This document shows, in pieces, positions 4,960 to 35,862 of a stretch of 64,000 nucleotides of DNA. The notes beneath the pieces were generated by a model. That model made no database searches. It was not told the DNA's origin and saw only the letters and a list, made by a program, of their open reading frames with translations. This DNA is from Gemmatimonadota bacterium. GTDB lineage: Bacteria > Gemmatimonadota > Gemmatimonadetes > Gemmatimonadales > Gemmatimonadaceae. Numbering within the stretch: the stretch's first letter is position 1; every line of letters begins with the position of its first letter. The position numbers were made by a program, and so were the translations under genes. The DNA is taken from NCBI GenBank assembly GCA_040389905.1, contig JAZJZK010000025.1, forward strand, positions 1 to 64,000, read 5' to 3'.

Positions 4960-5123
4960 CGGAGCACTGAGTCGAGGGTCGCCGGGTCACCACATCCGCG
5001 CGGAAGCAATCGCTCGGCGGTATACTGAAGGGCTGCCAGTGTCCAACCGCGTCGGTTCGTCCGCCGACAAGGAAGGAGTGCATGGCAATTCTCCGCCCCC
5101 TTCACCGTCGAGCCGCCACCAGC

Positions 5124-8926: not shown

Positions 8927-8962
8927 GTTGCGATCCGATTCCCATCCAGCGACGGAACTCTC

Positions 8963-12119: not shown

Positions 12120-12587
12120 TCACGCAATCGGCAACGCGATCCTTCGCGACGTAGCCTTCTCGTGTTTGACGCGCTTGACCTCACGCAGCGCCTCTGACCC
12201 ACCAACGGTCCGCCACATCAGATACGCGAAGATGTACGCGCCCAGCGCCGAGAGCGCCCCACCGGCGGACAGCACGATGGTTCCCGTGTCAGGTCGCACG
12301 ACGCGCATCACGAATCCACAAACCATCAGCGTCAAGCCGCCATTCGCCAGCCACCAGTGCACGCCGGCCGCGCGCTTGTTGTGCAACGGGTAGCCGGCAA
12401 AGCGCGGAATAACGTGGTACGCCACACCGAAGATCATCATCCCGACGAATCCGAACAGCATGACGTGCAGATGTGCCGGCAGGTATACCGTCCACACCGG
12501 GTGCGCCGCCATCGCGATTCCGATCGTGACGCCAATGGCCAACCACGCCACGCTTGCCTTGAGAAACGCGCGAACGAACCACTCCAT
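12120..12587 (-). CDS. Small 4-TM protein resembling part of heme-copper oxidase subunit I
   Basis: Start MEWFVRAFLK; PAHLHVMLFGFVGMMIFGVAYHVIPRF motif; coupled to the upstream DUF542 gene. Confidence 0.7.
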   Translation of the reverse strand: MEWFVRAFLKASVAWLAIGVTIGIAMAAHPVWTVYLPAHLHVMLFGFVGMMIFGVAYHVIPRFAGYPLHNKRAAGVHWWLANGGLTLMVCGFVMRVVRPDTGTIVLSAGGALSALGAYIFAYLMWRTVGGSEALREVKRVKHEKATSRRIALPIA

Positions 12588-20866: not shown

Positions 20867-21364
20867 GTGACATCACCACCTCCTGCACATCCCGGCACAC
20901 CGCAGCTCGTCCCGCCGCATCGCGGACCGCCTCGAAGCTGGCTTCAGCGCCGCCGCAGCACGAGTCGCGGACGCTTCGAGTTGGCGATCATCGGCGGTGG
21001 CGCCATCGCGCTTGCGCTCGCTGGAGTGCTTCCCGGGCTGAGTAGTGAGCATGGACTCTGGGTGCTGCTCGGCGCCGGTGTGGTGCTGACATGGCTCGCC
21101 AACATCTCCGGCCTCGTTCCGTCGCTCACGGCGGCGTTCTTCGCTCCGTTCGTCGTCGCGCTGACGGATCCGATGTGGACCCTCGGCTCGAGCATCGCGG
21201 ACTACACGCTCGGGAGCGAGACGTCGGCCACCTTCGCCGTGTTCGTGATGTCGGCGTTGATCGGTTCGGGATTTCGCCAAGCACGCCGCGCGCGACGGCG
21301 GCGCCAGACGCGGAGTCTCTGGCGGGCACGCCCGCAGCGGAAATCGGATAGCATGATGCTGTAG
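20867..21364 (+). CDS. Hypothetical membrane protein (about 4 TM)
   Basis: Hydrophobic helices and an Arg-rich tail; start uncertain. Confidence 0.55.
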   Translation: MTSPPPAHPGTPQLVPPHRGPPRSWLQRRRSTSRGRFELAIIGGGAIALALAGVLPGLSSEHGLWVLLGAGVVLTWLANISGLVPSLTAAFFAPFVVALTDPMWTLGSSIADYTLGSETSATFAVFVMSALIGSGFRQARRARRRRQTRSLWRARPQRKSDSMML

Positions 21365-21486
21365 CGGTGCTCCGCTGTACCCGTTTTGCCGTGCGGAATC
21401 AGCATGAACGATCCAAACAACATCGCAGGAGAATCTAACCGCAGAGGTCGCTGCGGATCTTAGTGGTCTGCAGACGGCACAACCAA

Positions 21487-21553
21487 TGAACCACAGAGGT
21501 CACAGAGAAACACTCACGTTGTTCTCCGTGTCCTCTGTGTCCTCTGTGGTTCA
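21487..21553. repeat. Palindromic repeat family A (ACC(A/G)CAGAGG tandem-unit inverted repeat)
   Basis: tgaaccacagaggtcacagag...ctccgtgtcctctgtgtcctctgtggttca. Confidence 0.85.
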
Positions 21554-21621
21554 AGGTTCTTCTGCAGTTCCTAAATAGTGGCCGTCCTGAAACTGCCATT
21601 TCTGGAGCGCACCATCATGGA

Positions 21622-21649
21622 TGTCATCCCGAGCTCACTCGGGGTGACA
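21622..21649. repeat. Palindromic repeat family B, minimal copy (TGTCATCCCGAG...CTCGGGGTGACA)
   Basis: Same termini as the copies at 35042 and 41461. Confidence 0.75.
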
Positions 21650-21686
21650 AACCTCCTGGTATCGATACTGGCGAAACACGCAGTAG

Positions 21687-22175
21687 CTATTGCCCCCGCT
21701 CGAATTCATCAGCCGAACCGCTGTCGCGTGATACCATGGTCTCCTCCGGCGCGCGCGACCACCGGCGCACGGCGAGCAGGATCGCAATGGCGCCGAGGAT
21801 CACCACTGCCACCGGGAGTGCGTACACCACGATGTTGAACCCGCTCGGCTTGGGAGCCAGGAGGATCCACTCACCGTATTTCGAGACGAAGTACGCCTTG
21901 ACCTCGTCCGGCGTTTTCCCCTGCGCGAGTTGTTCGCGAACGACGGCGCGCATGGACTGCGACAGCTCTGACGGCGAATCCTGGATCGAGAGACCCTGAC
22001 ACACGGGACACCGCAACTGCGACGCTACGGCAGACGTCCGCGCCTCGAGCGCCGAGTCACGCGGCTGGGACGGTATGGTGGTGGCGGAGTCCTGCGCGTA
22101 TGCCGCCCGCGCGGGCGCGGCAGAGAGCGCAAGCGCGAAGGCGATGACGCCAACGTTGCGAAGGCGAAGCATCAT
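21687..22175 (-). CDS. ccmH: Cytochrome c maturation protein CcmH (CycL)
   Basis: LRCPVCQGLSIQDS and YFVSKYGEWILLAP. Confidence 0.93.
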   Translation of the reverse strand: MMLRLRNVGVIAFALALSAAPARAAYAQDSATTIPSQPRDSALEARTSAVASQLRCPVCQGLSIQDSPSELSQSMRAVVREQLAQGKTPDEVKAYFVSKYGEWILLAPKPSGFNIVVYALPVAVVILGAIAILLAVRRWSRAPEETMVSRDSGSADEFERGQ

Positions 22176-22753
22176 GGCGCGGTCGCCGGCCTCGCGGCCG
22201 CGGCAACGAGGAGCGAGTCGACGATGTGGGCGAGCGCCGCGGCGTCCGCCGGGCCGGTGATCTTGTGCGCGATCTGTCCGTCGGCACTCACGATGAACGT
22301 TTCCGGCACGCCGTAGAGACCGTAGTCGATCGCGGTGTACGACTTGGGATCAGTCACCGATGGATAACTCTGTCCGCCCATCTGCGCGATCCACTCCGTG
22401 CCGGCACTCGGGCGATCCTGATACAGGGAACCGACGAACTGCACCGGTTTTCCAACGTACGTTCGCGCAACCGCGGAGAGCGCGGAATGCTCATCGCGGC
22501 ACGCCAGGCACCACGACGCCCAGAAGTTGAGTACCACCACCTTTCCGCGCAGGTCCGCCAGGCGAATGGTGTCACCGACGGGGCGCGCAAGAGGCGGCTG
22601 GCCTGGCGCAAACACTTCTCGCACGAATGGCGGCGCTGGGTGTCCCGGGAGTGGTGACGGAATGTCCTTCGGATCATGCTTCAGCCCAAAAATGAACAGG
22701 GCGATAAGTGGAAGGCCGAAGAGTGCGGCAATGACACTGCGACGCCAGTTCAT
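22172..22753 (-). CDS. ccmG: CcmG/DsbE thiol-disulfide oxidoreductase
   Basis: VLNFWASWCLAC, YGLYGVPETF; ATG 22753 overlaps the ccmF stop. Confidence 0.92.
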   Translation of the reverse strand: MNWRRSVIAALFGLPLIALFIFGLKHDPKDIPSPLPGHPAPPFVREVFAPGQPPLARPVGDTIRLADLRGKVVVLNFWASWCLACRDEHSALSAVARTYVGKPVQFVGSLYQDRPSAGTEWIAQMGGQSYPSVTDPKSYTAIDYGLYGVPETFIVSADGQIAHKITGPADAAALAHIVDSLLVAAAARPATAP

Positions 22754-24756
22754 GCCGCGCCTTCCTGCGGAAGAATGACTCCCGCGATCGGCTCGGCGAT
22801 GACCCCACGCCGGCGCGCGCCCGGCCACGCGCCGATGATTGCGCCAAGGACCACGACGCCGCCGCCAAACCAGATCCACGGCACGAGCGGTTCGAAGATC
22901 GCTTTGATGGTGGCGCTACTTCCATCGGGACGAATGGCCATCACATTGAGATAGAAGTCGCCGGTGATGCCGCTTCGGACCGCGGGCGTTGGCACCGGCT
23001 GCTGCGATGTTGGATAGAAATTCATCCGCGGCTCCATCGTCCCGATGACCCGCGTGCCGTCCATGATTTCCATCGTGGCGCCAACGACCGAGCGCTGTGG
23101 CTCCTCGCGGCCCCACAACTGCTTGAGGCGCGCCGTGCGCCCCGACACGGTGATCGATTCGCCTGGCTTCATCGTGCCTTCGGTCTCCGCGCGCAGCGAC
23201 GAGGACGCTGTAATCCCGAGCGCGACGATGAACACGCCAAGGTGCGCGATATAGCCGCCGTACCGTCGCCGGTTTCCGGCGATCACGCGCACGAGTGCAA
23301 GGAGCCAGTTCTCACCGTGCGCCGCATGGCGCGCGCGCGCGCCGAACCAGAATTCGCGGACATTCGCGGCCGCGGAATACCCGACGAAGGTGAAGGCGAG
23401 GAATCCGTAGAAGTTGTGGATGCCCATGGCGATGGCGATGATCGCCATCACCGCCGCTCCGGCAATTGGCGGAAGGAGCTTTGCGCGCAGTTCCTCGCGC
23501 GTTGTGCTCTTCCACGGCAGCGCCGGTCCGACACCCATGAGGAACAGGAGCGCCACGATCATCGGCAGCGACATGCGGTTGAAGAACGGCGTGCCGACAC
23601 TGACCTTCACGCCGCGGACGGCTTCGGCGACGAGGGGAAACAGCGTGCCGACCAGTACGGTCAGCATGAATGCCGTGAGGAACAGGTTGTTGAACAGGAA
23701 GATGGTCTCGCGCGACACCATCGCATCGATCCGCCCGGTGGTGCGCAAGCGATCCGACGTTCCCGCCACCAATGCGAGCGTAGAGATCAACACCAGGGTG
23801 ATGAACGCGAGAAAGTAGTAGCCAATCGTACCCGTGGTGAATGCGTGCACGGACGAGATGATTCCGGAGCGGGTGAGGAACGTGCCAAGAATCGTGAGCA
23901 CGAACGTGCCGACGACCAGGTTGATGTTCCACAACCGCAGCATGCTCCGGCGCTCCTGCACCATCGCGGAATGGAGAAAGGCCGTCGCGGTGAGCCACGG
24001 GAGAAATGACGCATTCTCGACGGGATCCCACGCCCAGTACCCGCCCCACCCGAGCACCTCGTACGACCACCACATGCCGGCGATGATCGCCGCGGAGAGG
24101 AATCCCCACGTGAGCACGGTCCAGTTGCGCGTGATCCGGATCCAGTCATTCGATTCCGCCTCGCGCGAGAGCAGTGCACCCACGGCGAAGGCGAAGGGAA
24201 CGCTCATGCCCACGTAGCCGAGGTACAGGAGTGGCGGATGCACACCCATGAGGATGTGGTTCTGCAGCAGCGGATTCGGGCCGGGCCCATCGGGCGGCAC
24301 CGGGAACACCGCCTGGAATGGATCGGCCGGACCAACCAGCAGAATCGCGAAGAAGAGCGACACAGCGAGAAGGACCATCCCCGCGTACGGCACGAGATCG
24401 CCCGGGCGACTGCGGTTCACGGCGATCACGACGATCGAATAGAACGCGAGCACCCACGCCCAGAAGAGAATCGACCCCTCGAGCGCGCCCCACAACGAAA
24501 TGATCGTGTAGAACAGCGGCGTCGCTCGGCTGCCCACCTGCGCGACATATGACACCGAGAAGTCGTGCGTCACCAATGCGACGAGCATCGCGACCACGGC
24601 CGCCGACACGAGAAGAAAGTTCGCGTAGATGGATCCGTACGCCACCGCGACGAGGTCAGCGCGTCCTCGGCGCACCGCCAACGGCATGAGGATCATCCCG
24701 AGCGCGAGGAACGGCAGGGACACGAGCAGTGCCGAGTGACCGACAAGACCGTTCAC
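22750..24756 (-). CDS. ccmF: Heme lyase CcmF
   Basis: WGGYWAWDPVENASFLPW, NPLLQN...HPP, SVHAF; GTG 24756 overlaps the ccmE stop. Confidence 0.95.
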   Translation of the reverse strand: MNGLVGHSALLVSLPFLALGMILMPLAVRRGRADLVAVAYGSIYANFLLVSAAVVAMLVALVTHDFSVSYVAQVGSRATPLFYTIISLWGALEGSILFWAWVLAFYSIVVIAVNRSRPGDLVPYAGMVLLAVSLFFAILLVGPADPFQAVFPVPPDGPGPNPLLQNHILMGVHPPLLYLGYVGMSVPFAFAVGALLSREAESNDWIRITRNWTVLTWGFLSAAIIAGMWWSYEVLGWGGYWAWDPVENASFLPWLTATAFLHSAMVQERRSMLRLWNINLVVGTFVLTILGTFLTRSGIISSVHAFTTGTIGYYFLAFITLVLISTLALVAGTSDRLRTTGRIDAMVSRETIFLFNNLFLTAFMLTVLVGTLFPLVAEAVRGVKVSVGTPFFNRMSLPMIVALLFLMGVGPALPWKSTTREELRAKLLPPIAGAAVMAIIAIAMGIHNFYGFLAFTFVGYSAAANVREFWFGARARHAAHGENWLLALVRVIAGNRRRYGGYIAHLGVFIVALGITASSSLRAETEGTMKPGESITVSGRTARLKQLWGREEPQRSVVGATMEIMDGTRVIGTMEPRMNFYPTSQQPVPTPAVRSGITGDFYLNVMAIRPDGSSATIKAIFEPLVPWIWFGGGVVVLGAIIGAWPGARRRGVIAEPIAGVILPQEGAA

Positions 24757-25205
24757 GAACCAGCTCCCTTCTTCATGAGCGTCTTGTACATCGCCTGCGG
24801 CGTTTCGCCCGGCTTCGGCGCGCGGTATTCGTTCGAATGCTTGACGATGAGATTCGTCGAGTTGAATACGCCGTCGCGATGATAGCGTCCTTCCACCACC
24901 ACACCCATGCCGTCGCGGAACATCTGTGGCGGCGCGCCGCGCGAGTGCACCGGAATGTCTCCCGAGCCATCGGTGACCGTGAACGACAGAGCGAGTGACG
25001 CGTCGTCCCACTTCACCGTACCCGGCTTCACCTGCCCGCCGAGACGTACGGGCACGTCGACACCCTCAACGCCCTTGGCGAGCAGCTCCTTGGGCGTAAG
25101 GAAGTACACGACATTCTGGTCGAGACCACCATAGATCAGGTAGCCGAACGCCAACACGATCACGGCGATGCCGCCGATGAGGACCTGCTTGTTCTTTCGG
25201 GTCAT
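24753..25205 (-). CDS. ccmE: Heme chaperone CcmE
   Basis: YFLTPKE, VRLGGQV, PQMFRDG, heme-binding HSNEY (HxxxY). Confidence 0.95.
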   Translation of the reverse strand: MTRKNKQVLIGGIAVIVLAFGYLIYGGLDQNVVYFLTPKELLAKGVEGVDVPVRLGGQVKPGTVKWDDASLALSFTVTDGSGDIPVHSRGAPPQMFRDGMGVVVEGRYHRDGVFNSTNLIVKHSNEYRAPKPGETPQAMYKTLMKKGAGS

Positions 25206-25357
25206 GGTGCCGCTGAGCTCCGCATGGTATTGGCCGAGTCGAGCAGGACTCGCGCGGCGCGCAGCTTTCGCTGCACCCGCAGGAAGTATCCCACCAGTAC
25301 GGCCCAGGTCACCGCGAACGCGGCGCCCACGAATATCCAGTTGTTCGCGCTACTCAC
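25202..25357 (-). CDS. ccmD: CcmD (51 aa; not in the supplied ORF track)
   Basis: Hand translation MSSANNWIFVGAAFAVTWAVLVGYFLRVQRKLRAARVLLDSANTMRSSAAP; 4-bp overlaps with both ccmC and ccmE. Confidence 0.85.
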   Translation of the reverse strand: MSSANNWIFVGAAFAVTWAVLVGYFLRVQRKLRAARVLLDSANTMRSSAAP

Positions 25358-26067
25358 TGTACGACTCCCAGCGCCGCGGCTTCCGACGCGTGTTCGGCCG
25401 CGCGCTCCATCAGCGCGGCATCATATCGGCGACGAATGAAATAGATCATGACGAACAGGAACGCGAACGCGTTCAGCCGCAGGCCGATGACGTACGCTGG
25501 ATCCACCGTCGATGGACTGGATTGAATCTGGTGGATCGTACGCCACCATCGGACGGACATGTAGACGATCGGGACATTCAGCGCCCCCATGATCCCCACA
25601 GCCGCGCTCCACTGCGCACGCTGCTCGCGATCGTCGATGAGGGCCCGCACCGACAGATACCCGGCGAGAATCAGGAAGAGCACGAGGGTCGACGTGAGCC
25701 GGGCGTCCCACGTCCACCAGATGCCCCACGTCGGACGCGCCCAGAGCATGCCGAGCATCAGCGTGAGCCCGGCGAACGCCACGGCAACCTCCGCCGCCGA
25801 CGACGCGAGAAGATCATCCTCTTCCCGCTTCCTGAACAGGTAGCGCACGGAAAAGAACAGCACCGTGAGTGGCGCCAACATGGTCATCCACGCCGCCGGC
25901 ACGTGCACGTACATGATTTTCTGCAAATCACCCATGTCTCGGTCGGGAGGCGAGATCAGGATGGCCGTGATCTGCGACGCAATGAGAAACAGCAGCGCAA
26001 ACCAGCCGAAGAACTGGCGGCGTTCGCGCGGAACCTGGACTGTGGACACAGTCGCCACACCTGCCAT
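25354..26067 (-). CDS. ccmC: Heme exporter CcmC
   Basis: YVHVPAAW, WARPTWGIWWTWDARLT, WWRTIHQ. Confidence 0.95.
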   Translation of the reverse strand: MAGVATVSTVQVPRERRQFFGWFALLFLIASQITAILISPPDRDMGDLQKIMYVHVPAAWMTMLAPLTVLFFSVRYLFRKREEDDLLASSAAEVAVAFAGLTLMLGMLWARPTWGIWWTWDARLTSTLVLFLILAGYLSVRALIDDREQRAQWSAAVGIMGALNVPIVYMSVRWWRTIHQIQSSPSTVDPAYVIGLRLNAFAFLFVMIYFIRRRYDAALMERAAEHASEAAALGVVQ

Positions 26068-26071
26068 GGCG

Positions 26072-26758
26072 CTATACCTCGATGACGGATTCGAACACAA
26101 GGAACGTGGCCGTGAGAAAGATCACGTCGAACACGATGAGCAACCGCGCCCATGCTCCCGCATCTCCCATCACGTTGCTGCCGAGCAACGCCTTGGTGGC
26201 TTCCATGGCCGCGAGAAGTACCGGGACGAGCATCGGAAACAACAACAAGGGAAGCAACACGTCGCGGGCACGGCTCCGGCTCGCCATGGCGGCGTAGAAG
26301 GTGCCGAGCGTGACGAGGCCGAGTGCGCCGAGAAACAAAATGGCGATGAGTGCCGGCCATTGCGCCGGAATTCGCACCTGGAAGAGCACGATCCCCACCG
26401 CGACGACCACCACCAACATGAGTCCGACGAACACGAAATTCGCGAGCAGCTTTCCCGCGAATATGGCTCGGCGCGAACCCGGATAGAGCACGAGTTGCTC
26501 CAGCGCGCCCCCGTCCAGTTCCATCTGATACGAGCGGTTGAATGCCAGCACACCAGCGAACAACGCGGCGAGCCAGATTGCCCCGGCGGCAGCGTTGCGA
26601 ATCGCCTCCGCATCGGGCCCCAGGGCAAAGCCGAGCATCACCAGAATGGTCACGGCCAAGGTGACCACGCCGTTGAACTGCGCCTTCGAGCGCCGCTCCG
26701 CCGTGAGATCCTTCCACGCGATCGCCCGCGCCCGCCGCCACTCCTTTCGCAGACTCAT
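26072..26758 (-). CDS. ccmB: Heme exporter permease CcmB
   Basis: KDLTAERRS, LLPLLLFPMLVP; six TM. Confidence 0.93.
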   Translation of the reverse strand: MSLRKEWRRARAIAWKDLTAERRSKAQFNGVVTLAVTILVMLGFALGPDAEAIRNAAAGAIWLAALFAGVLAFNRSYQMELDGGALEQLVLYPGSRRAIFAGKLLANFVFVGLMLVVVVAVGIVLFQVRIPAQWPALIAILFLGALGLVTLGTFYAAMASRSRARDVLLPLLLFPMLVPVLLAAMEATKALLGSNVMGDAGAWARLLIVFDVIFLTATFLVFESVIEV

Positions 26759-27450
26759 TTCCCGCCCGCGGCAAGAGACAGATGCGCGGCACGCTCGGCC
26801 TCGATGCGCCCATCGACGATCGTCACGGTGCGATGGAGGACGTTCGCCGCGGGCGCGAGCTCATGAAGCACCACCAGCGCGGCAGCCCCGTCCGCGACCC
26901 ATTCGGCGATGAGAGCATTCATCAGTTGGATACCCTCCGGGTCGAGATTGCTGTACGGCTCGTCGAGCAGGAGCACGCGCGGTCGCATCAGGATGAGACG
27001 AGCCAGTGCGAGCCGCCGTTGCATCCCGGCGGAGAGACCGCGTACTTGACGCTCCGCTGCGGCCATAAGACCCACTCGATCGAGGACGGATTCGATGTCC
27101 GACTCGGCGCGGTCGAGCATCGTCGCGGCAAAGGCGATGTTCTCGCGCGCAGTGAGATCCGCGTACAAGGCTGGCGAATGCGCGAGAAACCCAACCTGTG
27201 ACCGCACATCGTGTGAGGCACGCACCACGTCGTGCCCAGCGATGCGCGCGGTCCCGGCGTGCGGACGCAACAGCGTGGACAGAATGCGGAGGAGCGTACT
27301 CTTGCCGCTTCCATTGGCGCCCAGCAATCCCACGACTTCACCCGGCGCAACACGGAGCGTTACACCACGGAGAACCCACGTGGTGCCGAATCGCCGCGCA
27401 ACACCCGTGGCATCGATCGCGGCGAGGGGTGTGCCGCTCGCTTCACTCAC
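26755..27450 (-). CDS. ccmA: Heme ABC exporter ATPase CcmA
   Basis: GANGSGKS, LSAGMQRRLALAR, LLDEP; adjacent to ccmB. Confidence 0.92.
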   Translation of the reverse strand: MSEASGTPLAAIDATGVARRFGTTWVLRGVTLRVAPGEVVGLLGANGSGKSTLLRILSTLLRPHAGTARIAGHDVVRASHDVRSQVGFLAHSPALYADLTARENIAFAATMLDRAESDIESVLDRVGLMAAAERQVRGLSAGMQRRLALARLILMRPRVLLLDEPYSNLDPEGIQLMNALIAEWVADGAAALVVLHELAPAANVLHRTVTIVDGRIEAERAAHLSLAAGGK

Positions 27451-28127
27451 CGCGCCGCGGAGGATTTCGCGATCGCATCATCGATGTCCCGCGCATGTTC
27501 AGCGTACTCCTTGAGCGCCGAACGTTCGGTTGGCGCGGAGGCGACAAGTTGCTTGCGGTACTTCGCTGCCGCGGTCTGGTCACCTGCGACCTCTGCTCCG
27601 CGAATCGCCAGGACGAGACCGAGCAGATGCGTCGCCCGCCCCGCGAGAATCGTGTCCGCTTCGGCACGAGCGCGTTTCGTGTCGCCGACGGCGGCCGAGA
27701 TCACGCCGATGTCGTACCGAGCGTGCGCATCGACGGGGCCGATCATTTCGTACGCCTGAATGGCCATCGGCGCAAAGAAGCGCGCACTGTCCAGCTTTCC
27801 TTGCTCGCTGTAGAGCATGACCCGGTTGAACAGCCTGTTCGCACGTTCCTCCGGGGACATCGCCGAGATGTCCGGTGCCGCGGGAGCCCCTGACATCGCC
27901 GAGAGCGGCTGCGTGGATTGTTCGGAGCTTGCTGTATCGGGCTGAGCGCGCCGGCCACTGGCAAAACCTGCCACAAAGGCCACGAGCGCGATGAGCGCGG
28001 CACCGCCGACCAGCCATGGGAGTCGCTCCGTGCGGGGCGCATTGTCGGCACCGCAGGTCGAACAGAAGCGGCCCGCGACAGGCTGGCCGCACCGGCGGCA
28101 CCGGACTTCGGGTAGTTGATCTGACAT
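27447..28127 (-). CDS. Zinc-ribbon + TM + TPR-like protein (possible CcmI/CycH analogue)
   Basis: CRRC...FCSTCG, a TM helix, then a helical periplasmic domain; directly upstream of ccmA. Confidence 0.62.
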   Translation of the reverse strand: MSDQLPEVRCRRCGQPVAGRFCSTCGADNAPRTERLPWLVGGAALIALVAFVAGFASGRRAQPDTASSEQSTQPLSAMSGAPAAPDISAMSPEERANRLFNRVMLYSEQGKLDSARFFAPMAIQAYEMIGPVDAHARYDIGVISAAVGDTKRARAEADTILAGRATHLLGLVLAIRGAEVAGDQTAAAKYRKQLVASAPTERSALKEYAEHARDIDDAIAKSSAAR

Positions 28128-28573
28128 CAGCTGCTCATCGCCTTCTTGCGGATGACTTCGTGAACTCGGCCCAGCACGGAATCCTTCAAGGTATGCGGCG
28201 CGGGTGCCAGCGGTCCATTCCGCCGGCGAATATCCGCAAGGGCGCTGTCGGCCATCGGCGTGTTTTTCGTGGCCCGCGCCACCATGTAGATGCCGAAGAA
28301 TGGCGCCGCATGCTGGGGCGCCAACGCCGACGCGGAACGGTACTTCTCCAGCGCAGCGGGATAGTCCTTCCTGCGAAACAACGCGTTTCCGCTGTCGAGT
28401 TCCGCCTTGGCGGCCGGGCCGATCAGGCCGTGCGCCGCGGCGGCGGCGCCGGCACTGTCCCCTCGGGCGATCTCGCCCAATGGCACCTTGGGGGCTTCCT
28501 GCCCGGAGCACGCGAGCGAAGCGGCGGCGAATGCCACCGCAACAACCCTGCGCCGCGCGAACGACCGAATCAT
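28127..28573 (-). CDS. TPR-containing lipoprotein
   Basis: Lipobox SLAC; GNALFRRKDYPAALEKYRSA TPR. Confidence 0.7.
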   Translation of the reverse strand: MIRSFARRRVVAVAFAAASLACSGQEAPKVPLGEIARGDSAGAAAAAHGLIGPAAKAELDSGNALFRRKDYPAALEKYRSASALAPQHAAPFFGIYMVARATKNTPMADSALADIRRRNGPLAPAPHTLKDSVLGRVHEVIRKKAMSS

Positions 28574-28593
28574 GGCTTCCTCATGGACGCCGC

Positions 28594-30024
28594 TCACTTG
28601 GCGAGCGGATTCTTGAAATGACAGTACAGGCAGAGCTGCGGGTTCTTCGCGGACATCCGCGCGGCGTCGAACTCGGGCCCGTGCGGATTGATTCGAGAAC
28701 CGAGCTGGGAGTGGCACTGCATGCAGTAGGTCTGTTGATGACAGGTCGTGCACGCCTTCAAGTCTTGTCGCGCCGCTCGGCCATGCTGAAGGAACCAGAA
28801 CGGCTGCGCGTTGTGGAAGACGGTGGTACGGGTGTTTTTGGTCGCGGCGAGCCCCGTCTGACGATGACAATCGCGGCAGAATGCCTCGGCCGAATGACAG
28901 GAACTGCAATCGGTTTCGCGGCGGTACGCCTGCGGCGCATGCGTCGATACAAAATTGTTCGCGTGGTAGCGGTGCGTCACCTTTTCACCGGTGTGACAAT
29001 CCGCGCAGAACCGCTTCGCGTGGCAATTTTCGCAGGTTGCTGCACCGGACGCCGCCTGCGCGCCGTGCGCGCGTGCGAAGCCGGTGGCGTGCACGCGCAC
29101 AGTTCGCAAACTCGTGTCGGCAATCTGCCGCTCGTGCCGCAATTGCACACCGGGAGCCGTCGCCTCGCGTGCGTCAGGGAGACGCCGGAGCGCATCGCGC
29201 GCCCCGTCCCCGGTGTGGCACGTTTCGCAGCTCGCGCGCGCATGGCACGTCGCACAGCGCGCAATGTTCGACTTCGCCGCCGCGCCGTGCACAAGACCAA
29301 ACTGGGTTTCACGGTGGTCGGCCGGAAGCGGATACACCGCGTGCTTACTGGCAACGAACCGCGCAACGCGGGCGTCCGTCTCGAGGGCGCGGATCATCGG
29401 CTGTCGCGCTCCATCGACGTGGCATCGTTGACAACTTTCCCGTGCATGACATGTCGTACAGTTCGCGATACCTGCGCGTGCGGCAGTGCCGTGGGTGGAC
29501 GTGAAGTCCGTGCGCGCATGCGATGGTGGTTTTGGAAGCCCAGCCACTGCGGCGTCACTCAGTGCCGTGGCATTCACCAGCGTCCTGTGACAGGTCGAGC
29601 ACGTATTCGCATCCGCGAGATGGGTGCGGCTCGTACCCTTCTGATGACACGACATGCACTGCTCGGGCATTGCGTGCGCCACGTTCATCCAAGGCGCCGC
29701 ATCATCGAGGGCATGACACGACTCGCACCGCACCCCCGTGGTCTTGGTGGCGTGTTGCTGATGCGAGAACGCGAGGAGGCCTGCACCCTTCCGGGCAGGC
29801 GGCTCCCATCGAACGCGGGGTTGCACGGTGCCATTGTGGCACTGCACGCAGAGAGCCGCCGTCGGATAATTCCGGACCGCATCGCCCGTTGTGATTCCGG
29901 TGTGGCAGCTCGAGCACAACAGGAAGAGTTTTGCGTGGCGCGCATGCGGAAATGGCGATGTCGTCTGCGCAGTCAGGAAGACCGGCGCAAGGAACATCGC
30001 CAATGCCAAAAGCGCGCGCCTCAT
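28594..30024 (-). CDS. Periplasmic 16-heme c-type cytochrome
   Basis: Sec signal; 16 CxxCH counted, including five doubled CxxCH-x4/5-CxxCH units. Confidence 0.93.
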   Translation of the reverse strand: MRRALLALAMFLAPVFLTAQTTSPFPHARHAKLFLLCSSCHTGITTGDAVRNYPTAALCVQCHNGTVQPRVRWEPPARKGAGLLAFSHQQHATKTTGVRCESCHALDDAAPWMNVAHAMPEQCMSCHQKGTSRTHLADANTCSTCHRTLVNATALSDAAVAGLPKPPSHARTDFTSTHGTAARAGIANCTTCHARESCQRCHVDGARQPMIRALETDARVARFVASKHAVYPLPADHRETQFGLVHGAAAKSNIARCATCHARASCETCHTGDGARDALRRLPDAREATAPGVQLRHERQIADTSLRTVRVHATGFARAHGAQAASGAATCENCHAKRFCADCHTGEKVTHRYHANNFVSTHAPQAYRRETDCSSCHSAEAFCRDCHRQTGLAATKNTRTTVFHNAQPFWFLQHGRAARQDLKACTTCHQQTYCMQCHSQLGSRINPHGPEFDAARMSAKNPQLCLYCHFKNPLAK

Positions 30025-31361
30025 TTTGCCATCCCCGGATCACGCCCCATCGTCCACTCGAAGCGGAGCGCCGCCCGCCGTTGCGTCCAGTCGGGACCGG
30101 GCGCGCCGTTTGTCAGGACGTGCTGGTACACGCCGATGTCAGCGACGAGGCGCGCATCGGGGGCAATGCGCATCGCCCCATTCAGCGCCGCGCCGAGAAT
30201 TCGTCCGGTGCCGACACGGAACTCATAGATGTTCTGCGTAATCGCGAGGTCGACGCCAACGGCCATGTCATCGGATCGGCTCCAGTGGCCACCGGTGCGG
30301 ACGTCGGTGCTCGCCGCGCCACTCCCGATGTCGACGTCGTACGAACCGAAGGCAGAGAGCGACGTTGCGTTCTGCCAGCGCACGTCTCCACCGGCGCGCC
30401 ATCCATTGGTCCGCACTCCAGGCACCGCCGTTCCCGCGTCCGCGTATTTCCTGAACGCGCCGCGCAGGGACGCAGAGAAGGGCGATCCTGGCGCACCCCA
30501 ATCCACGGTCGCTCGCTCCTCGTCGAACCCGATGGGGGAGAATGCTCCCCAGATCGTCCACAACTCGAAGTACGGACGCGAATGACGCACTTCCACCGAG
30601 TAGCCGATGGTCCGTCCGGCGCTCGCACCCAGGCGCAGTCGTGCCTCGTTGAAGTCCCCGGTGGCGAAGTCGTAGTTCAGACCGAGATCCGCCGTCACCG
30701 CATACGCGCGCGACGACGCGTCGAACGATGCGCGCTCGGCGTAGAGTCCACTGCGGTCGGCGAGGAGCACCCGTTGGTATGTCAGCGCGGTGCCGAGCAA
30801 CGGGCTTGGACGATAGCGCGCCCGCCCGCCGACGATGTACCCGTCTTGCGGCGGAGGGAGGTTGTCTACGGCAGCGAGCTGCGCGCTCGTGTAAGGATCG
30901 TTGAGGCCGGCCAACAGCGCCCGCCCACCCCAGCCCTCGACACTGAACTCCTCGTGCCGCAGGAGCGCGTTGGCTCCGTCGAACGCATACGAGCCGAGGC
31001 CACTGGTGATCCACTGCCGGCCAAGGCGTCCGCGCCATGTGCTTCGATCGAGTTCCGCATACGCGTCGATCGCATCGAGGTGCCGGTCCGCGCGGGGATA
31101 CAGCAGACCATCGGTCGAGCCGAGCTGTGTGCGCGCCCGCAAGTTCGCGTGAAAGCTGAGCCCTTCTCGCCATCCCCAGCCGGACAGCGTGAGGTCCTGC
31201 AACACGGGCGCTGCACTGATGCGGTTGCCCGAGGTGAGAATCGAGTCGATGACCAACTGGCGGAGTTCCACGTACTGGACCGTGGTGACGCCGGAAATAC
31301 GCAGCCCCTGCGCCGCGAGCAACGACGGGCACGCCAGCGCCACGAGGAGCAGTCGCTTCAC
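30021..31361 (-). CDS. Outer-membrane beta-barrel porin of a porin-cytochrome cluster
   Basis: GTG 31361 with signal peptide; amphipathic strands (AYAEL...GRLGRQ, FDGA); sits between multiheme genes. Confidence 0.82.
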   Translation of the reverse strand: MKRLLLVALACPSLLAAQGLRISGVTTVQYVELRQLVIDSILTSGNRISAAPVLQDLTLSGWGWREGLSFHANLRARTQLGSTDGLLYPRADRHLDAIDAYAELDRSTWRGRLGRQWITSGLGSYAFDGANALLRHEEFSVEGWGGRALLAGLNDPYTSAQLAAVDNLPPPQDGYIVGGRARYRPSPLLGTALTYQRVLLADRSGLYAERASFDASSRAYAVTADLGLNYDFATGDFNEARLRLGASAGRTIGYSVEVRHSRPYFELWTIWGAFSPIGFDEERATVDWGAPGSPFSASLRGAFRKYADAGTAVPGVRTNGWRAGGDVRWQNATSLSAFGSYDVDIGSGAASTDVRTGGHWSRSDDMAVGVDLAITQNIYEFRVGTGRILGAALNGAMRIAPDARLVADIGVYQHVLTNGAPGPDWTQRRAALRFEWTMGRDPGMAK

Positions 31362-33235
31362 TTCGCGATCTCGGGGCGCCGGGCGCTCAACATGCCGTGA
31401 TCCAACGCGTGGCACGCCGCGCAGTCACCCTGCGGATAGTGCGTGCGCTGTGGCTGATGACACGTCACGCAGATCGCTCTCGACAATGGAAGCGCCGCGA
31501 TGGTCGCGTCGGTATGGCAACTCGCGCAACCAGCGTGCGACGCGCGATCGTGCCCAACGCGCGCGGTGGTGTGGCAGCTCGCACAATCGGCAACCGCAGT
31601 ATGGTGCGACGTGTGACAGCTCGCGCAGGTCGTCGTGACTTTCCGGTTTCCGGCATTCGCGTGGCACCGCACACACGCGAGTGTGTCATGCCGTGTGTGC
31701 GTGAAACCGATCTGTCGCGTAACGGGATCCTTGCGCGCGCTGATCGCGAACGCCATCGGCATATCGCGCTGCGGAAGCGAGCCTGCCGCATGGCAGGCGG
31801 TGCACGTCGCCTTTTGTTGCGCACCGTGATGACAGGCCGTGCATCCCGCCGGCCGGCTGAACGTAAGCCCGCCATGTGTGCTGTTGACGGCATGGCACTG
31901 GGTGCACCCCACGGTGCTGTGGCGCGAATGCAGAAAGCCAGTGTCTCGAGCCGGAGTCACCGGAGCCTCCCTCGTCACGAGCGAGGCGAAACGGATGACG
32001 CCGCGCGTCGCGCGAGTGTGCCGCGCGAGCCGGCGCGGTGCGCGTGCCCTCGGCACCTCGCTCACGCGTCTGGCTTTTGGGCGATCCTGATTGATCGTCG
32101 TATGACACGCCTTGCAGTCCGTTCCCTTCACTTTCCAGCTGTGTGCCTGATGACACGCGCCGCATTGGTCGAGCGAGTGCTTCCCGAGGCCGCGATGGAA
32201 CGCGGTGAGCGTGTCTGCCGATGCATGACACTGGGCGGTCGCGCACGTCTTGAAAGCGTCCTTCGGTTCCGTGTTCTTGTGCACGTCGTGACACGATCCG
32301 CAGTTGCCTTTGTGCGGGTCCAGGGCGAGATCGAAATTCTTGATCGCCTTTGTCATGGGATGACACGAGGTGCAATCCAGCACCTTCGGCACCAGCGCGA
32401 GTTTCGCCTGTGCCACGGTGGTACCGGGCGGCACGAGTCCCTTGAAGTCGTGGCACGAGGTGCAGTGCATGAACCCCTGCTTCGACATGTCGCCGAGGTT
32501 CACGCGCTGATTGAAGTGGCAGCCGCTCTGCGTACAACTGAACGCGGTCGGCGTGAACTGGTGAAAGTCGCGCCCGTGGCACGAAGTGCATTGGATCTTG
32601 CTGAGCGAATCATTCGTCGAGCGAAGATGCAAGGCATGTCCGGCTGTCAGCGTCACGAGCGTGCGAGCGGAGTCCGTTCCCGCGCGCATGTGACATTCAC
32701 CGCACACCTTGCTGGGCACCTTGTCGTGCGGCGGGATGGTCATCCGTCGCTCCGTCACCCACCAGAACAACTCCACGGAACTCACGTACATGGGTTGGCG
32801 GTGACAGCCGTGACACGTCACGTCCTTGTGCGCACTCACCTGAAAGCGGTTCCACGCCGTGTCCATGACGTGGCACGACTGGCAGAAGTCGTTCTCGTGC
32901 ATCATGTAGTTGTAGCCGTACAGTCCCGAGCCGATGCCGACGACGCCAACGGTGAGGATCGTTGCCGCCATCGCGCTCTTCGCGAAGAGGGAGCGGCTCA
33001 GCCACCACGCCCAGAGCTCTCGGCGCCGTTTCCACATGTGCCACGCGACGATCGCCGCGACCGGCACGCCGATGAAGATGCCCCCCAGCTGCACCCATTG
33101 GGGCACGGTGGTGAACAGAAAGCGGAACAGGTGGCCGGCCAACGCAGTCGTCTCGCCGGCGGTCTTCGACGACGCATGCCCTGCGTACTGCGCGTCCGGT
33201 GTCTGCTGAAGGAGGAGGAGCAGGGCGAGGATCAC
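31358..33235 (-). CDS. Membrane-anchored NapC/NirT-like multiheme cytochrome, 18 CxxCH + 2 CxxxxCH
   Basis: N-terminal TM helices, then NDFCQSCHVM...SAHKDVTCHGCH (NapC/NrfH-like); motifs counted by hand. Confidence 0.88.
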   Translation of the reverse strand: MILALLLLLQQTPDAQYAGHASSKTAGETTALAGHLFRFLFTTVPQWVQLGGIFIGVPVAAIVAWHMWKRRRELWAWWLSRSLFAKSAMAATILTVGVVGIGSGLYGYNYMMHENDFCQSCHVMDTAWNRFQVSAHKDVTCHGCHRQPMYVSSVELFWWVTERRMTIPPHDKVPSKVCGECHMRAGTDSARTLVTLTAGHALHLRSTNDSLSKIQCTSCHGRDFHQFTPTAFSCTQSGCHFNQRVNLGDMSKQGFMHCTSCHDFKGLVPPGTTVAQAKLALVPKVLDCTSCHPMTKAIKNFDLALDPHKGNCGSCHDVHKNTEPKDAFKTCATAQCHASADTLTAFHRGLGKHSLDQCGACHQAHSWKVKGTDCKACHTTINQDRPKARRVSEVPRARAPRRLARHTRATRGVIRFASLVTREAPVTPARDTGFLHSRHSTVGCTQCHAVNSTHGGLTFSRPAGCTACHHGAQQKATCTACHAAGSLPQRDMPMAFAISARKDPVTRQIGFTHTRHDTLACVRCHANAGNRKVTTTCASCHTSHHTAVADCASCHTTARVGHDRASHAGCASCHTDATIAALPLSRAICVTCHQPQRTHYPQGDCAACHALDHGMLSARRPEIAK

Positions 33236-33340
33236 GCGGCTCCCTTATGCAAGAAACGCGGCGAGGGGCTCGGCGACGCATGCCATCGTCGCCGGGCCCC
33301 ATCGTCGAACCGTGCCGCGAACTGCGCGGCGCTCACCAGG

Positions 33341-34837
33341 CTATCGTCGTGATCCGTTGGCGGAACGGTCTCGTGGAGGTTGGACGAACTGCAGCGTGAG
33401 GGGCGGCGGGGAGTCGGGCGTCACCCCGTAGTCCTTCTGGATCTGGTTGATGGACGCGACGAGGAGTTGCTCGAGCAGGAACGGGTTATGAACGAACGCG
33501 CCCGGTGATTGTGCGAGCGACACGTTGAATTGTGTACCGAGGCAGGACGTGAATGGCTTGCCGGCAACGAGCGTGCATGCGGCGGCGTTGACCGCCTTCA
33601 CCTTGGCGATGGCGGAGTTGGCCGACGTCACCAACTGGAGAATGCGCACCGAATCCGTGACGTAGAGCGTGCGCGCGACGGTTTCGGAGGCGTGGCAACT
33701 GCTGGCGGCGCATGACCGGAATGTCTTGGCGGTCAGTGCGCAGTTCTGGGCGACGGTCGGAAGGCCGTTCGCGTCGACGCACGGGGTCGCGATGAACCGG
33801 TGCCCTGTACTCTGCTGGATGAACTTGCCGGTCGCCTTGTCCGTGGCCGCGAAGCGCGCCACGTGGCAGGTCGCGCACAATTTGGGATTTCGCGAGGGCG
33901 TGCCGTGCGAGCCGATGATCGAGTCGCTCGTGCTCATGCCCGGCGGGAACCAACCGGCCGTGCCGAACAGGGTGGGCCCTTCGGGAGAGTGGACGCTGTT
34001 CCGCGTGGTGACCTGCGACGGATCCGCGCGCCGCTGGTGGCACTTGGCGCAGAGATTGTCGTCGACATTGGCCGCGCTGATGGAAAAGCGAAGCTGGTGT
34101 TCGTTCGGCGATCCGTGCGGATCGTGGCACGTTGCACACACGAGCGGCAGGGCGTTCGCGGTCGTCAATGCGGACGTCGCGACCTTTTCCTTGTAGTTGC
34201 CGTTCGGGTCGAACTGCGCCAACGCGCCCTGCGCCGTGTGGCAGCCGACACAGGTGGGATCCGTATTGCCAACCGTGCCCGACTGCACGATCGCGTGCGA
34301 CAGGCCCTTTTCGTTCGCGAGCTTCCACTCGCTGACGAACGGGCTGTGAACGCCGGTATGACACTCACCGCACCCATCGGTGGCATTCGTGTCTGCCTTG
34401 ATGGAAGCCAGTGGGCGATTCAGCTGCGTGGGGCTACTCGCGTGCGTGAGCCCGGGGCCGTGACAACTCTCGCATTGCACATCGTGATAGCGTGCATCTT
34501 TTGTCGAGCGGTACCCAGCGATGGTGTCGGTGACTGCGTTGCCGAGGTTGTTGACGCTGTGACACGCCTCGCAGTAGCCGGCAACACCGCTGCTCGCCTG
34601 GAGATCCTTCCATGCCGATGCGTGCTTGGTCGTGCTCCACCGCGTCTGGTAGTCGACGTGGCATCCGCCGCAGACAGTGCGCTTGCTCGTTTCATCCGAG
34701 TAGCCGATGAAGCTCGCGGCCGCCGTCGCTGGTGCGGCGAAGTTGGAGCCATCGCGATAGACAATCTTCTCGGTTGTGCAGGCGAGGAAGGAGAGCGCCG
34801 CAACCACGAGAACTGCTTTTGCTACCTGGATGCGCAT
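33341..34837 (-). CDS. Multiheme cytochrome c lipoprotein, 8 CxxCH + 1 CxxxxCH
   Basis: GGAG RBS; lipobox FLAC; VQCESCHGPG; C-terminal PGAFVHNP helix region. Confidence 0.9.
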   Translation of the reverse strand: MRIQVAKAVLVVAALSFLACTTEKIVYRDGSNFAAPATAAASFIGYSDETSKRTVCGGCHVDYQTRWSTTKHASAWKDLQASSGVAGYCEACHSVNNLGNAVTDTIAGYRSTKDARYHDVQCESCHGPGLTHASSPTQLNRPLASIKADTNATDGCGECHTGVHSPFVSEWKLANEKGLSHAIVQSGTVGNTDPTCVGCHTAQGALAQFDPNGNYKEKVATSALTTANALPLVCATCHDPHGSPNEHQLRFSISAANVDDNLCAKCHQRRADPSQVTTRNSVHSPEGPTLFGTAGWFPPGMSTSDSIIGSHGTPSRNPKLCATCHVARFAATDKATGKFIQQSTGHRFIATPCVDANGLPTVAQNCALTAKTFRSCAASSCHASETVARTLYVTDSVRILQLVTSANSAIAKVKAVNAAACTLVAGKPFTSCLGTQFNVSLAQSPGAFVHNPFLLEQLLVASINQIQKDYGVTPDSPPPLTLQFVQPPRDRSANGSRR

Positions 34838-35041
34838 GGTGCACATCTCTCCACTGAGGGTACTGCTCTTTCGAACGCTCGGGCCGGTGCGGTCCACCAC
34901 GCGTCGTCCTTCTACATCGTGATTCCTTGGTAACATGTACGACTACGCACGCAGCCGCTGTCAGGCAAATTACGGACACGATAACAGGATGTTTACAGTC
35001 GGCTCGATCTCGCTCTAGATTCGATACGGTTCCGTTGGGGC

Positions 35042-35109
35042 TGTCATCCCGAGCGAAGTCGAGGATCTGCACGTGCCGCCTGTATACGAAGTGCAGACCC
35101 TTCGACTCG
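35042..35109. repeat. Palindromic repeat family B
   Basis: tgtcatcccgagcgaagtcgaggatctgcac...gtgcagacccttcgactcg. Confidence 0.85.
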
Positions 35110-35207
35110 TAATTCATAGGGTACAGGCCTTTTCGCGGAGTTTACCCGCAACGAAGCTGACGAGCTCAGGCAGCAACCGAACCGAACAGCAGATAGCGGA
35201 CGACGAC

Positions 35208-35723
35208 TTATCGCGTTGCGCGGGCGCGGAGCGACGCGTCGATCTCGCGCGAGGAGAGCTGGCGAGGAAGCGGCATGTCTCCCCGATCGCTCGGCCGAGT
35301 GGGAACCTGAATGCGTGCGACCGAACCATCTGCAGCGAGCTCGACGATCGCTTGCGCCGCGTCGTCGCCGTGCTGATCCTGCTGGACCTTGATCACGAGT
35401 GTCCAGAGCCCGGAGTCCGCCCACTGCTTGCGCAGCGCATAGGCTCCCGTGCGTGACGTCGCCGTGAAGTCGAGCACCACGGAGCGCCGCGCTCCATTGA
35501 CGAGACCCTCGGCTGTGCCCGTCACCGGCGCGTTGATGTCGGTGCCGTGGTGGAACGCGTGGACGAGCAGGAATGCCCCGCGCGTTGTGGCATCATATGG
35601 ATTGACCGGTGTTTCGATCGAGATCCATGGCGGACCGGCAAGGACGGCGGGCCGTGCGCTCAGCGCACTGACACTGGCGAGGAGTGCGACGGCACCGAGG
35701 ACCAACGAGCGTGAAGCAATCAT
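35208..35723 (-). CDS. Exported hypothetical protein
   Basis: GGAGG RBS; signal peptide; GPPWISIE..NPYD, HAFHHG. Confidence 0.7.
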   Translation of the reverse strand: MIASRSLVLGAVALLASVSALSARPAVLAGPPWISIETPVNPYDATTRGAFLLVHAFHHGTDINAPVTGTAEGLVNGARRSVVLDFTATSRTGAYALRKQWADSGLWTLVIKVQQDQHGDDAAQAIVELAADGSVARIQVPTRPSDRGDMPLPRQLSSREIDASLRARATR

Positions 35724-35862
35724 GACGACCTCCGGAAGAGTGGATGTCGATAGGATGCCACTCGGCGGTGGCCTGCTTAGTGGGGGGACGGCAAGGGTGA
35801 TCCCGTTCAGCGAGCGACATACAATGGCTTGATTCGAGCCTCACCATGGCTAGATTGTAGCC

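Follow-up and report, generated by a model that had tools for sequence, protein, structure and literature searches.

A putative porin-cytochrome conduit operon with 45 heme-binding motifs, conserved within one lineage of Gemmatimonadota

Members of the phylum Gemmatimonadota are abundant in soils and sediments, and their respiratory range is poorly known. The class Gemmatimonadetes is among the commonest soil lineages and is regarded as consisting of aerobic heterotrophs. Can such bacteria exchange electrons with material outside the cell, and by what route? The question is raised by one operon in a stretch of 64,000 nucleotides from a soil-type Gemmatimonadota genome (assembly GCA_040389905.1, contig JAZJZK010000025.1, positions 1 to 64,000), referred to here as the window. 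The window corresponds to contig C25 of a 5.08 Mb genome in 66 contigs with an estimated completeness of 84.6%. The operon comprises 14 co-directional genes on the minus strand, running from 34837 to 21687, and encodes a 9-heme lipoprotein, a 20-heme membrane-anchored cytochrome, an outer-membrane barrel, a 16-heme periplasmic cytochrome, two further proteins and a set of ccm genes.

A first-pass annotation had read these genes as an electron path of ~45 hemes from the quinone pool to the cell surface. The layout on which it was based, a lipoprotein cytochrome and a quinol-dehydrogenase-type membrane cytochrome together with a barrel and a periplasmic cytochrome, is supported by our analysis, and a script count of heme-binding motifs gave a total of 45 (9 + 20 + 16). 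The same counts recur in relatives, and the heme-motif pattern is far beyond chance. Judged by its sequence, the best interpretation of the operon is as a variant porin-cytochrome conduit, a capacity that the papers searched do not describe for Gemmatimonadota. We give a probability of roughly 60% to a lineage-specific conduit that is analogous to the Geobacter porin-cytochrome conduit (Pcc) and lies outside MtrCAB, and the operon likely forms a wire that links the quinone pool to the cell surface. We infer that the proteins form a complex and reach the surface, and we likewise infer direction and substrate. The published work on conduits and on OcwA is cited from excerpts of the papers.

The barrel and its three cytochromes

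The lipoprotein carries eight CXXCH motifs and one CX4CH motif. Its lipobox cysteine (Cys20) is invariant in 37 sequences, all nine heme motifs are conserved in the same set, and nine further histidines outside the motifs are conserved as well, six of them invariant and three present in at least 90% of sequences. A profile search against the PDB gave 6qvm_A (E 6e-18) and OcwA (6i5b, E 1e-13) as the best matches, followed by weaker matches to HAO (E 8e-5), chain 6r2q_A (E 7.6e-4; we take this chain to be MtrA, and the entry label differs), c554 and NrfA. The AlphaFold2 (AF2) model, with a mean predicted local distance difference test score (pLDDT) of 76 and a predicted TM-score (pTM) of 0.75, ends in long C-terminal helices (residues 385-421, 431-443 and 452-470). 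Only three Foldseek matches reached E≤0.001, 6qvm_A and chains A and B of 6i5b (E 1e-6 to 2e-6, TM-score 0.42-0.52, identity 17-18%), and NrfA nitrite reductases came next at E 0.013-0.06. According to its entry title, 6qvm_A is an undecaheme cytochrome from the S-layer of Carboxydothermus ferrireducens; it is presumably the OmhA of PMC7829351, an assumption whose sole support is the match in length between 681 residues and a 2046-nt gene.

For OcwA, PMC6703420 (in part) describes a nonaheme cytochrome of the NrfA/c554/MccA lineage that acts as a terminal reductase at the cell surface. OcwA shares with the lipoprotein the number of hemes and the NrfA-like long C-terminal helices. OcwA and the 6qvm protein differ from the lipoprotein in belonging to Gram-positive cell walls and having no barrel partner. 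In addition, two hemes of OcwA are reported to be five-coordinate, whereas the nine extra histidines suggest that all hemes of the window lipoprotein are six-coordinate. The Pfam model PF22113, for domains II/IV of MtrC/MtrF, scores 40.4 bits on the lipoprotein against a cut-off of 30, yet the protein has nine hemes and its modelled fold matches OcwA and 6qvm, not MtrC. The profile and fold matches place the lipoprotein in an OcwA/OmhA-like branch of the NrfA superfamily, and from its sequence it is predicted to be the terminal, surface-side cytochrome.

The 20-heme protein contains 18 CXXCH and two CX4CH motifs. Its residues 93-147 align collinearly and without gaps to residues 19-72 of Desulfovibrio vulgaris NrfH (2j7a_C, E 2e-6), a stretch that spans the transmembrane helix, heme 1 with its CXXCHxM motif, and heme 2. 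In NrfH the methionine of this motif ligates heme 1 beside the quinol site, and in 31 homologues of the 20-heme protein it is conserved at 90% or more. The alignment of these homologues divides the protein into an 11-heme N-terminal part, a linker rich in Pro, Arg and Ala that varies from 0 to ~100 residues, and a 9-heme C-terminal module, with all motifs conserved. On our reading of the sequence, a strongly basic loop (KRRR) joins the two N-terminal hydrophobic helices, which fits a periplasmic location of the predicted heme domain. The earlier label 'NapC-like' therefore holds for the transmembrane helix and the first two hemes, the elements shared with the NapC/NirT/NrfH family, and not for the rest of the protein. 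NrfH itself is a tetraheme protein of ~160 aa, whereas here the module continues into a further 18 hemes and a second, tethered domain. We rejected an assignment to NrfH proper, given the length of 625 aa, the 20 motifs and a TIGR03153 score of 32.2 bits against a cut-off of 134.2.

All 16 heme motifs of the periplasmic cytochrome are CXXCH, with five doubled CXXCH units, and these motifs together with 16 further histidines are invariant in 34 sequences. By sequence, its PDB matches are a domain of GSU1996, the Geobacter 'nanowire' cytochrome (3ouq, E 8e-8), and ActA of alternative complex III (6f0k, E 2e-6). The hemes are spaced at 28.6 aa each, and MtrA is less dense at ~33 aa per heme (PMC5566968, in part). 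A cytochrome of at least 14 hemes directly follows the barrel gene in 53 of 55 classified loci (described below). The predicted role is that of a wire through the barrel, with hemes that are apparently all bis-His.

The porin proposed by the first-pass annotation does model as a barrel: built on 49 sequences, the AF2 prediction is confident (pLDDT 86.4, pTM 0.82) and has 22 strands. It contains no heme motifs. Neither Pfam nor NCBIfam holds a family that matches it, although Porin_4 matches 7 of the 49 relatives and OMP_b-brl 8 of the 49. The barrel profile found no relative by sequence in the PDB, with only Porin D at E 0.55, and Foldseek returned generic outer-membrane barrels only (49 matches listed, TM-score 0.27-0.51), among them the ushers FimD and PapC, AlgE, MOMP, Occ channels and a TonB-dependent receptor. 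An ESM Atlas search gave Gemmatimonadota clusters and weak beta-barrel leads only. By the formula of standard barrel geometry, 22 strands correspond to a width of ~40 Å from C-alpha to C-alpha, against ~47 Å at 26 strands. In receptors and ushers, a lumen this wide holds a plug or a passing polypeptide. The window barrel is ~35 residues shorter than most of its relatives (446 against ~480 aa), and it is without an N-terminal insert that carries two conserved cysteines in the consensus (alignment A1).

The kinship of the lipoprotein raises the alternative of a periplasmic enzyme of the NrfHA kind. Here the lipoprotein would be a periplasm-facing reductase of a soluble substrate such as nitrite, hydroxylamine, sulfite or tetrathionate, with the barrel as entry porin, the NrfH-like cytochrome as feeder and the 16-heme protein as a redox buffer. 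Such an enzyme would agree with the position of NrfA next after OcwA and 6qvm by fold, with the profile match to HAO, and with the Porin_4 matches of some barrel relatives; OcwA itself turns over nitrite and hydroxylamine, slowly (PMC6703420, in part). The lipoprotein, however, lacks a CXXCK motif, and since nine conserved extra histidines are available for nine hemes, no coordination site is obviously open. The alternative also gives no role to an invariant, all bis-His 16-heme protein beside the barrel, and a 20-heme donor far exceeds what NrfHA-type systems use. We regard it as quite improbable.

Conservation of the core and variation around it

Relatives of the barrel number 344 in 90% clusters and 279 as representatives at 50% identity, and they occupy 456 loci among GTDB species genomes. 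Their records are from Gemmatimonadaceae, Gemmatimonadales or Gemmatimonadota metagenome-assembled genomes (MAGs), in agreement with the first-pass suggestion that the host belongs to Gemmatimonadota. A barrel match is present in 197 of 401 sampled Gemmatimonadota genomes. Strong matches are confined to the class of the window, and other classes gave E-values of 1e-4 to 1e-16 only. Within the family the distribution is patchy, with the barrel in 36 of 101 genomes.

We compared the best 80 of the 456 loci, all of them from MAGs; 25 were too short, and the remaining 55 were classified. The four-gene core of the window, with heme motifs 8+1 in the lipoprotein, 18+2 or 17+3 in the second protein, then the barrel and 16 in the last, is found in 32 of the 55. 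Seven loci have two 9-heme lipoproteins and no 20-heme gene (class B), and in five a short protein of 9-10 hemes replaces the 20-heme gene (class C); these short proteins correspond to the C-terminal 9-heme module alone. Three loci have the 20-heme gene but no lipoprotein gene within 4.3 kb, six have the barrel and 16-heme genes with other genes upstream, and in the last two the genes are apparently broken. The heme counts of the window persist down to 35% barrel identity. The comparison, a synteny check of the kind that the first-pass annotation had named, shows the operon to be conserved in architecture and heme counts in 32 of 55 loci, and we conclude that it is strongly conserved and lineage-specific.

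The variants are informative as to the electron donor. In two class C loci (L076 and L081), which are without the NrfH-type module, the core is flanked by genes for a cytochrome b, a Rieske protein and a further cytochrome of nine hemes (at L081:8838-12488). Weaker Rieske or cytochrome b signals were found at L055, L063, L073, L078 and L080; in total, cytochrome b matches occur at 7 of the 80 loci and Rieske matches at 5, and the other class C loci have no cytochrome b match within the fetched flanks. Two different quinol-oxidising modules are therefore found beside the same core, a pattern that suggests a connection to the quinone pool. Moreover, the large subunit of a [NiFe]-hydrogenase is encoded within 10 kb of the core at 22 of the 80 loci, and at least one of three hydrogenase genes (small subunit, large subunit, cytochrome b) at 23. 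The small subunit has a Tat-type leader and the cytochrome b is of the Ni_hydr_CYTB family; examples are L072:14080-16940, with Hyp genes nearby, and L042:14593-17624. All class B loci except L051 have the hydrogenase, and no hydrogenase of this type was found in the window's own genome at E<1e-8. An uptake hydrogenase would feed electrons into the quinone pool, from which the conduit would withdraw them.

Could the operon instead encode a periplasmic electron store (a capacitor of 45 hemes) or a protective redox sink that detoxifies metals or oxidants, in either case lacking a dedicated partner outside the cell? The high heme density, an aerobic host with few other cytochromes and the patchy distribution in the family are compatible with such a role. 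It would leave the barrel, the lipid anchor, the quinol module and the exchange of the 20-heme gene for Rieske and cytochrome b genes unexplained, and we consider it very improbable indeed.

Relation to known conduits and direction of electron flow

The conduit of Geobacter sulfurreducens (OmaB-OmbB-OmcB) likewise places a barrel, a periplasmic multiheme cytochrome and an outer-membrane lipoprotein cytochrome side by side. The first-pass annotation had held that a porin of ~446 aa sets the window's conduit apart, but the predicted 22 strands lie within the range of 18-22 given for Geobacter-type Pcc porins (Shi et al. 2014, PMC4245776, in part), so this point is not supported. The periplasmic partners in the same source have 5-14 hemes, against 16 here. 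OmcB is of a 12-heme type and the window lipoprotein of a 9-heme OcwA-like type, and the window operon differs further in holding the 20-heme quinol dehydrogenase and ccm genes. The likeness is one of layout and description rather than of demonstrated sequence relation to OmbB, OmaB and OmcB, which is the criterion of Shi et al., and matches to the GSU2203 decaheme family are far below cut-off (43.7 against 325 bits).

Shewanella MtrCAB (6R2Q) has in common with our proposal the principle of a cytochrome threaded through a barrel and meeting a surface lipoprotein cytochrome. The MtrB barrel has 26 strands, against the 22 predicted here, and the two MtrCAB cytochromes have 10 hemes each, against 16 and 9. 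Membership in the MtrCAB/MtoAB/PioAB group was rejected: none of the 49 barrel relatives matches the Pfam family MtrB_PioB at E≤1, the DmsE/MtrA family TIGR03508 scores 16.5 bits on the 16-heme protein against a cut-off of 192.2, and this protein has 16 hemes, not 10. The earlier statement that heme counts and porin do not match MtrCAB is supported by the same results.

Further conduits, PCC3 and PCC4, were described as putative by He et al. 2017 (PMC5566968, in part), and they resemble the window operon in their heme-rich cytochromes and an inner-membrane component of their own. PCC4-like clusters are reported to carry cytochrome b and Rieske genes, as do some of the variant loci above. In PCC3, porins have up to 42 predicted strands, the cytochromes have medians of 34 and 21 hemes, and the inner-membrane component is a di-heme b protein with five helices and two HX13H motifs. 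We rejected membership in PCC3, in view of the 22-strand barrel and the c-type, NrfH-like inner-membrane component of the window operon. Full-text literature searches found no description of such a cluster, in line with the first-pass suggestion of an undescribed conduit type. For Gemmatimonadetes, one CbcL-type and two ImcH homologues are listed in an excerpt of PMC6295460. Marine Gemmatimonadota MAGs gave FeGenie matches to Cyc2 and DFE_0461-0465 as well as three MtrABC operons (PMC11316326, in part); the DFE_0461-0465 clusters of D. ferrophilus encode NHL-repeat proteins and no apparent porin-cytochrome conduit, according to an excerpt of PMC9769857. PCC groups are described for cave MAGs (PMC13264449, in part), and the passages seen of PMC9769843 and PMC6137239 hold nothing specific to this cluster.

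In the conduit that we propose, the N-terminal NrfH-type module of the 20-heme protein would exchange electrons with quinol at the inner membrane. Electrons would be conducted along the 11-heme membrane-proximal part of the same protein and transferred to its 9-heme C-terminal module, held on a flexible linker of variable length. This module would pass them to the 16-heme cytochrome, which is predicted to run through the barrel in the way that MtrA runs through MtrB. At the outer face, the OcwA/OmhA-like lipoprotein would act as terminal reductase for extracellular or large acceptors, for which Fe(III)/Mn(IV) minerals, humics and electrodes are candidates, and the adjacent ccm genes would supply heme attachment. 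The strongest indirect support for the conduit comes from the invariant pair of barrel and 16-heme protein, the Rieske/cytochrome b swap and the kinship of the lipoprotein with surface reductases.

The remainder of the genome bears on function, including the direction of flow. A whole-genome scan gave four open reading frames with at least three CXXCH motifs, three of which are the conduit genes. The fourth encodes an ActA-like pentaheme protein on contig C14 (C14:1190-5096, locus L082) and adjoins the gene for a 1053-aa molybdopterin/4Fe-4S protein, an arrangement like that of ActA and ActB in alternative complex III. The scan turned up no small periplasmic multiheme shuttle, which speaks for a self-sufficient conduit. 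Two full heme-copper oxidase (COX1) genes are present, on contigs C23 and C5. Given its two COX1 genes and the pair resembling alternative complex III, the aerobic host has a high-potential sink, and this would suit the same conduit run inward, as proposed for MtoAB/PioAB-type systems, with extracellular Fe(II), Mn(II), reduced humics or a partner cell delivering electrons to the quinone pool or the aerobic chain. Excerpts of PMC13264449 and PMC5566968 report porin-cytochrome clusters in oxidisers and reducers alike, and for marine Gemmatimonadota annotation cannot separate reduction from oxidation (PMC11316326, in part). Direction cannot be fixed by sequence alone. NrfH-type modules are quinol dehydrogenases (this is the molecule name of 2j7a_C), which makes outward flow, with oxidation of quinol, the likelier direction. 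In addition, the proteins most closely related to the lipoprotein have been proposed to be reductases, as far as the excerpts go, and a hydrogenase with cytochrome b beside the core would supply quinol, not consume it. Inward operation is in our view unlikely.

Several observations weigh against the proposed conduit. Its basis is in sequence and structural models. The host is aerobic, has two oxidases and very few cytochromes, and is in this respect unlike known metal reducers. MtrB is absent among the 49 Foldseek matches listed for the barrel, and the barrel may be a mere substrate channel, since its fold matches are generic and some relatives match Porin_4. The barrel is also absent from both other genomes of the window's genus. 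The lipoprotein falls in the NrfA superfamily, which otherwise consists of enzymes located in the periplasm; an NrfH-like partner together with an NrfA-type protein is the classical NrfHA pairing, and the side of the membrane that the lipoprotein faces is not readable from its sequence. Finally, predictions of surface cytochromes can fail, as deletions of putative outer-surface cytochromes in D. ferrophilus left Fe(III) oxide reduction unaffected (PMC9769857, in part).

A bolder form of the proposal is that about half of the class Gemmatimonadetes possesses a lineage-specific, self-sufficient 45-heme wire, in which a tethered 9-heme arm, instead of a soluble shuttle, reaches an unrelated complex of 22-strand barrel and 16-heme cytochrome. 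With a hydrogenase beside a quarter of the loci, the wire would serve mineral or humic respiration on H2 or organic carbon in anoxic soil microsites, as a fourth independent invention of the porin-cytochrome principle. We put this forward tentatively, as an idea that we would sooner doubt than adopt. Should the operon encode a functioning conduit, many members of the class would be capable of extracellular electron transfer, be it metal, humic or electrode respiration or the reverse. Soil iron and manganese cycling would need new marker genes, which current tools, built around models of Mtr, Pcc and Cyc2, would probably overlook. The conduit could be compared with MtrCAB and used in engineering, as its design is compact: a quinol module with a tethered arm, a 16-heme wire in a small barrel, and an OcwA-like terminal cytochrome. 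The swappable quinol modules and the hydrogenase linkage would give directly testable predictions.

Operon layout, ccm genes and neighbouring genes

The genes form one co-directional run with mostly overlapping or near-abutting borders, as the first-pass annotation had it, and the coordinates bear this out (Table 1). At the loosest junction, ~105 nt separate the lipoprotein gene from the 20-heme gene. The 20-heme gene has its stop codon at 31358-31360, immediately next to the start of the barrel gene at 31361; the barrel and 16-heme genes overlap by 4 nt, and a 20-nt gap separates the 16-heme gene from the gene for a small TPR lipoprotein, after which overlaps of 1-4 nt lead into ccmA. A scan of positions 21000-36000 for promoter and terminator consensus sites gave no excess over shuffled sequence (promoter-like sites 1 against a shuffle mean of 2.5, terminator-like sites 9 against 8.8), and the base composition of the operon is the same as that of its flanks.

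Table 1. Genes of the operon, listed in the direction of transcription, with window coordinates and the basis of each assignment
Feature	Coordinates	Strand	Basis
9-heme lipoprotein cytochrome, 498 aa, OcwA/OmhA-like	33341..34837	minus	script motif count, PDB profile, Foldseek
20-heme inner-membrane cytochrome, 625 aa, NrfH-type anchor and quinol module	31358..33235	minus	motif count, NrfH alignment
outer-membrane 22-strand beta-barrel, 446 aa including signal peptide	30021..31361	minus	AF2 model
16-heme periplasmic cytochrome, 476 aa, signal peptide	28594..30024	minus	motif count
small TPR lipoprotein, 148 aa, accessory	28127..28573	minus	weak TPR_11/TPR_2 matches, below cut-off
zinc-ribbon and transmembrane protein, 226 aa	27447..28127	minus	weak DZR match
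ccmA, ABC ATPase	26755..27450	minus	PF00005 E 1e-34
ccmB	26072..26758	minus	PF03379 E 7e-40
ccmC	25354..26100	minus	PF01578 E 1e-31; true start probably downstream of 26100
ccmD-like single-helix open reading frame, 51 aa	25202..25357	minus	position only: between ccmC and ccmE, 4-nt overlap on each side
ccmE, heme chaperone	24753..25205	minus	PF03100 E 3e-28
ccmF, heme lyase	22750..24756	minus	PF16327 E 4e-60, PF01578 E 4e-34; start (VNGLVG) set by comparison with relatives
ccmG, thiol-disulfide oxidoreductase	22172..22753	minus	Redoxin and AhpC-TSA E 1e-17
ccmH	21687..22175	minus	PF03918 E 6e-33

Two TPR proteins had been annotated between the conduit genes and ccmA. One of them has a weak TPR match; the other is a zinc-ribbon membrane protein. 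In 50 of the 80 loci (hand count), tblastn places a match to the TPR lipoprotein right after the 16-heme gene, whichever side the ccm genes are on, and this lipoprotein is likely an assembly or docking factor. The zinc-ribbon gene lies directly upstream of ccmA even where the ccm genes are upstream of the conduit (L056, L062, L066); its product travels with the ccm operon and is possibly a CcmI-like helper.

Of the annotated ccmABCDEFGH, the products CcmA, B, C, E, F, G (a redoxin) and H are all above Pfam cut-offs and encoded in the one operon, and ccmD is assigned by position only; together they make up a full system for cytochrome c maturation (System I). The first-pass annotation had regarded these genes as the conduit's own maturation machinery. 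The genome, however, has a second set, with ccmABC on contig C23 (~190.8-192.8 kb, L084) at 33-41% identity to the window set and ccmE, ccmF and ccmH on contig C52 (~32.1-35.1 kb, L083) at 30-40% identity (both by tblastn); Pfam confirms CcmB, CcmE and CcmF of this set. A double-zinc-ribbon gene adjoins the ccmF of the second set. At least 39 of the 80 loci have ccm genes within the fetched flanks (hand count), downstream of the conduit in close relatives and upstream in more distant ones.

We defined a linked CcmF type by at least 59% identity and tallied it by hand in the 101 genomes of the family; it is present in 31 of 36 barrel-positive and 15 of 65 barrel-negative genomes (15 of 64 without the unpublished genome G156), counts in which related genomes are not independent. 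In several barrel-positive genomes (for example G054, G330, G139, G093 and G103) it is the sole CcmF match, whereas both the barrel and this CcmF type are missing from the two other genomes of the window's genus. Conduit and linked ccm type are therefore associated, and they appear to have been gained or lost together. A dedicated ccm set, private to the conduit, was rejected, because the linked CcmF type also occurs in the barrel-negative genomes.

Just upstream of the operon, a gene for a 171-aa secreted protein (35208-35723, minus strand) was considered as a further member and placed outside the unit, as none of the 80 loci has a match and the protein belongs to no family. It has one paralogue, at 40% identity, on contig C45. 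Elsewhere in the window, Type I restriction-modification genes occupy 5082-11980 on the plus strand, namely HsdM (5082-6689), a RhuM-family gene (6686-7693) and HsdR (8963-11980). On the minus strand, a short weak match to the COX1 family at 12309-12554 (model positions 314-399, 32.6 bits) looks like a fragment or a small related open reading frame.

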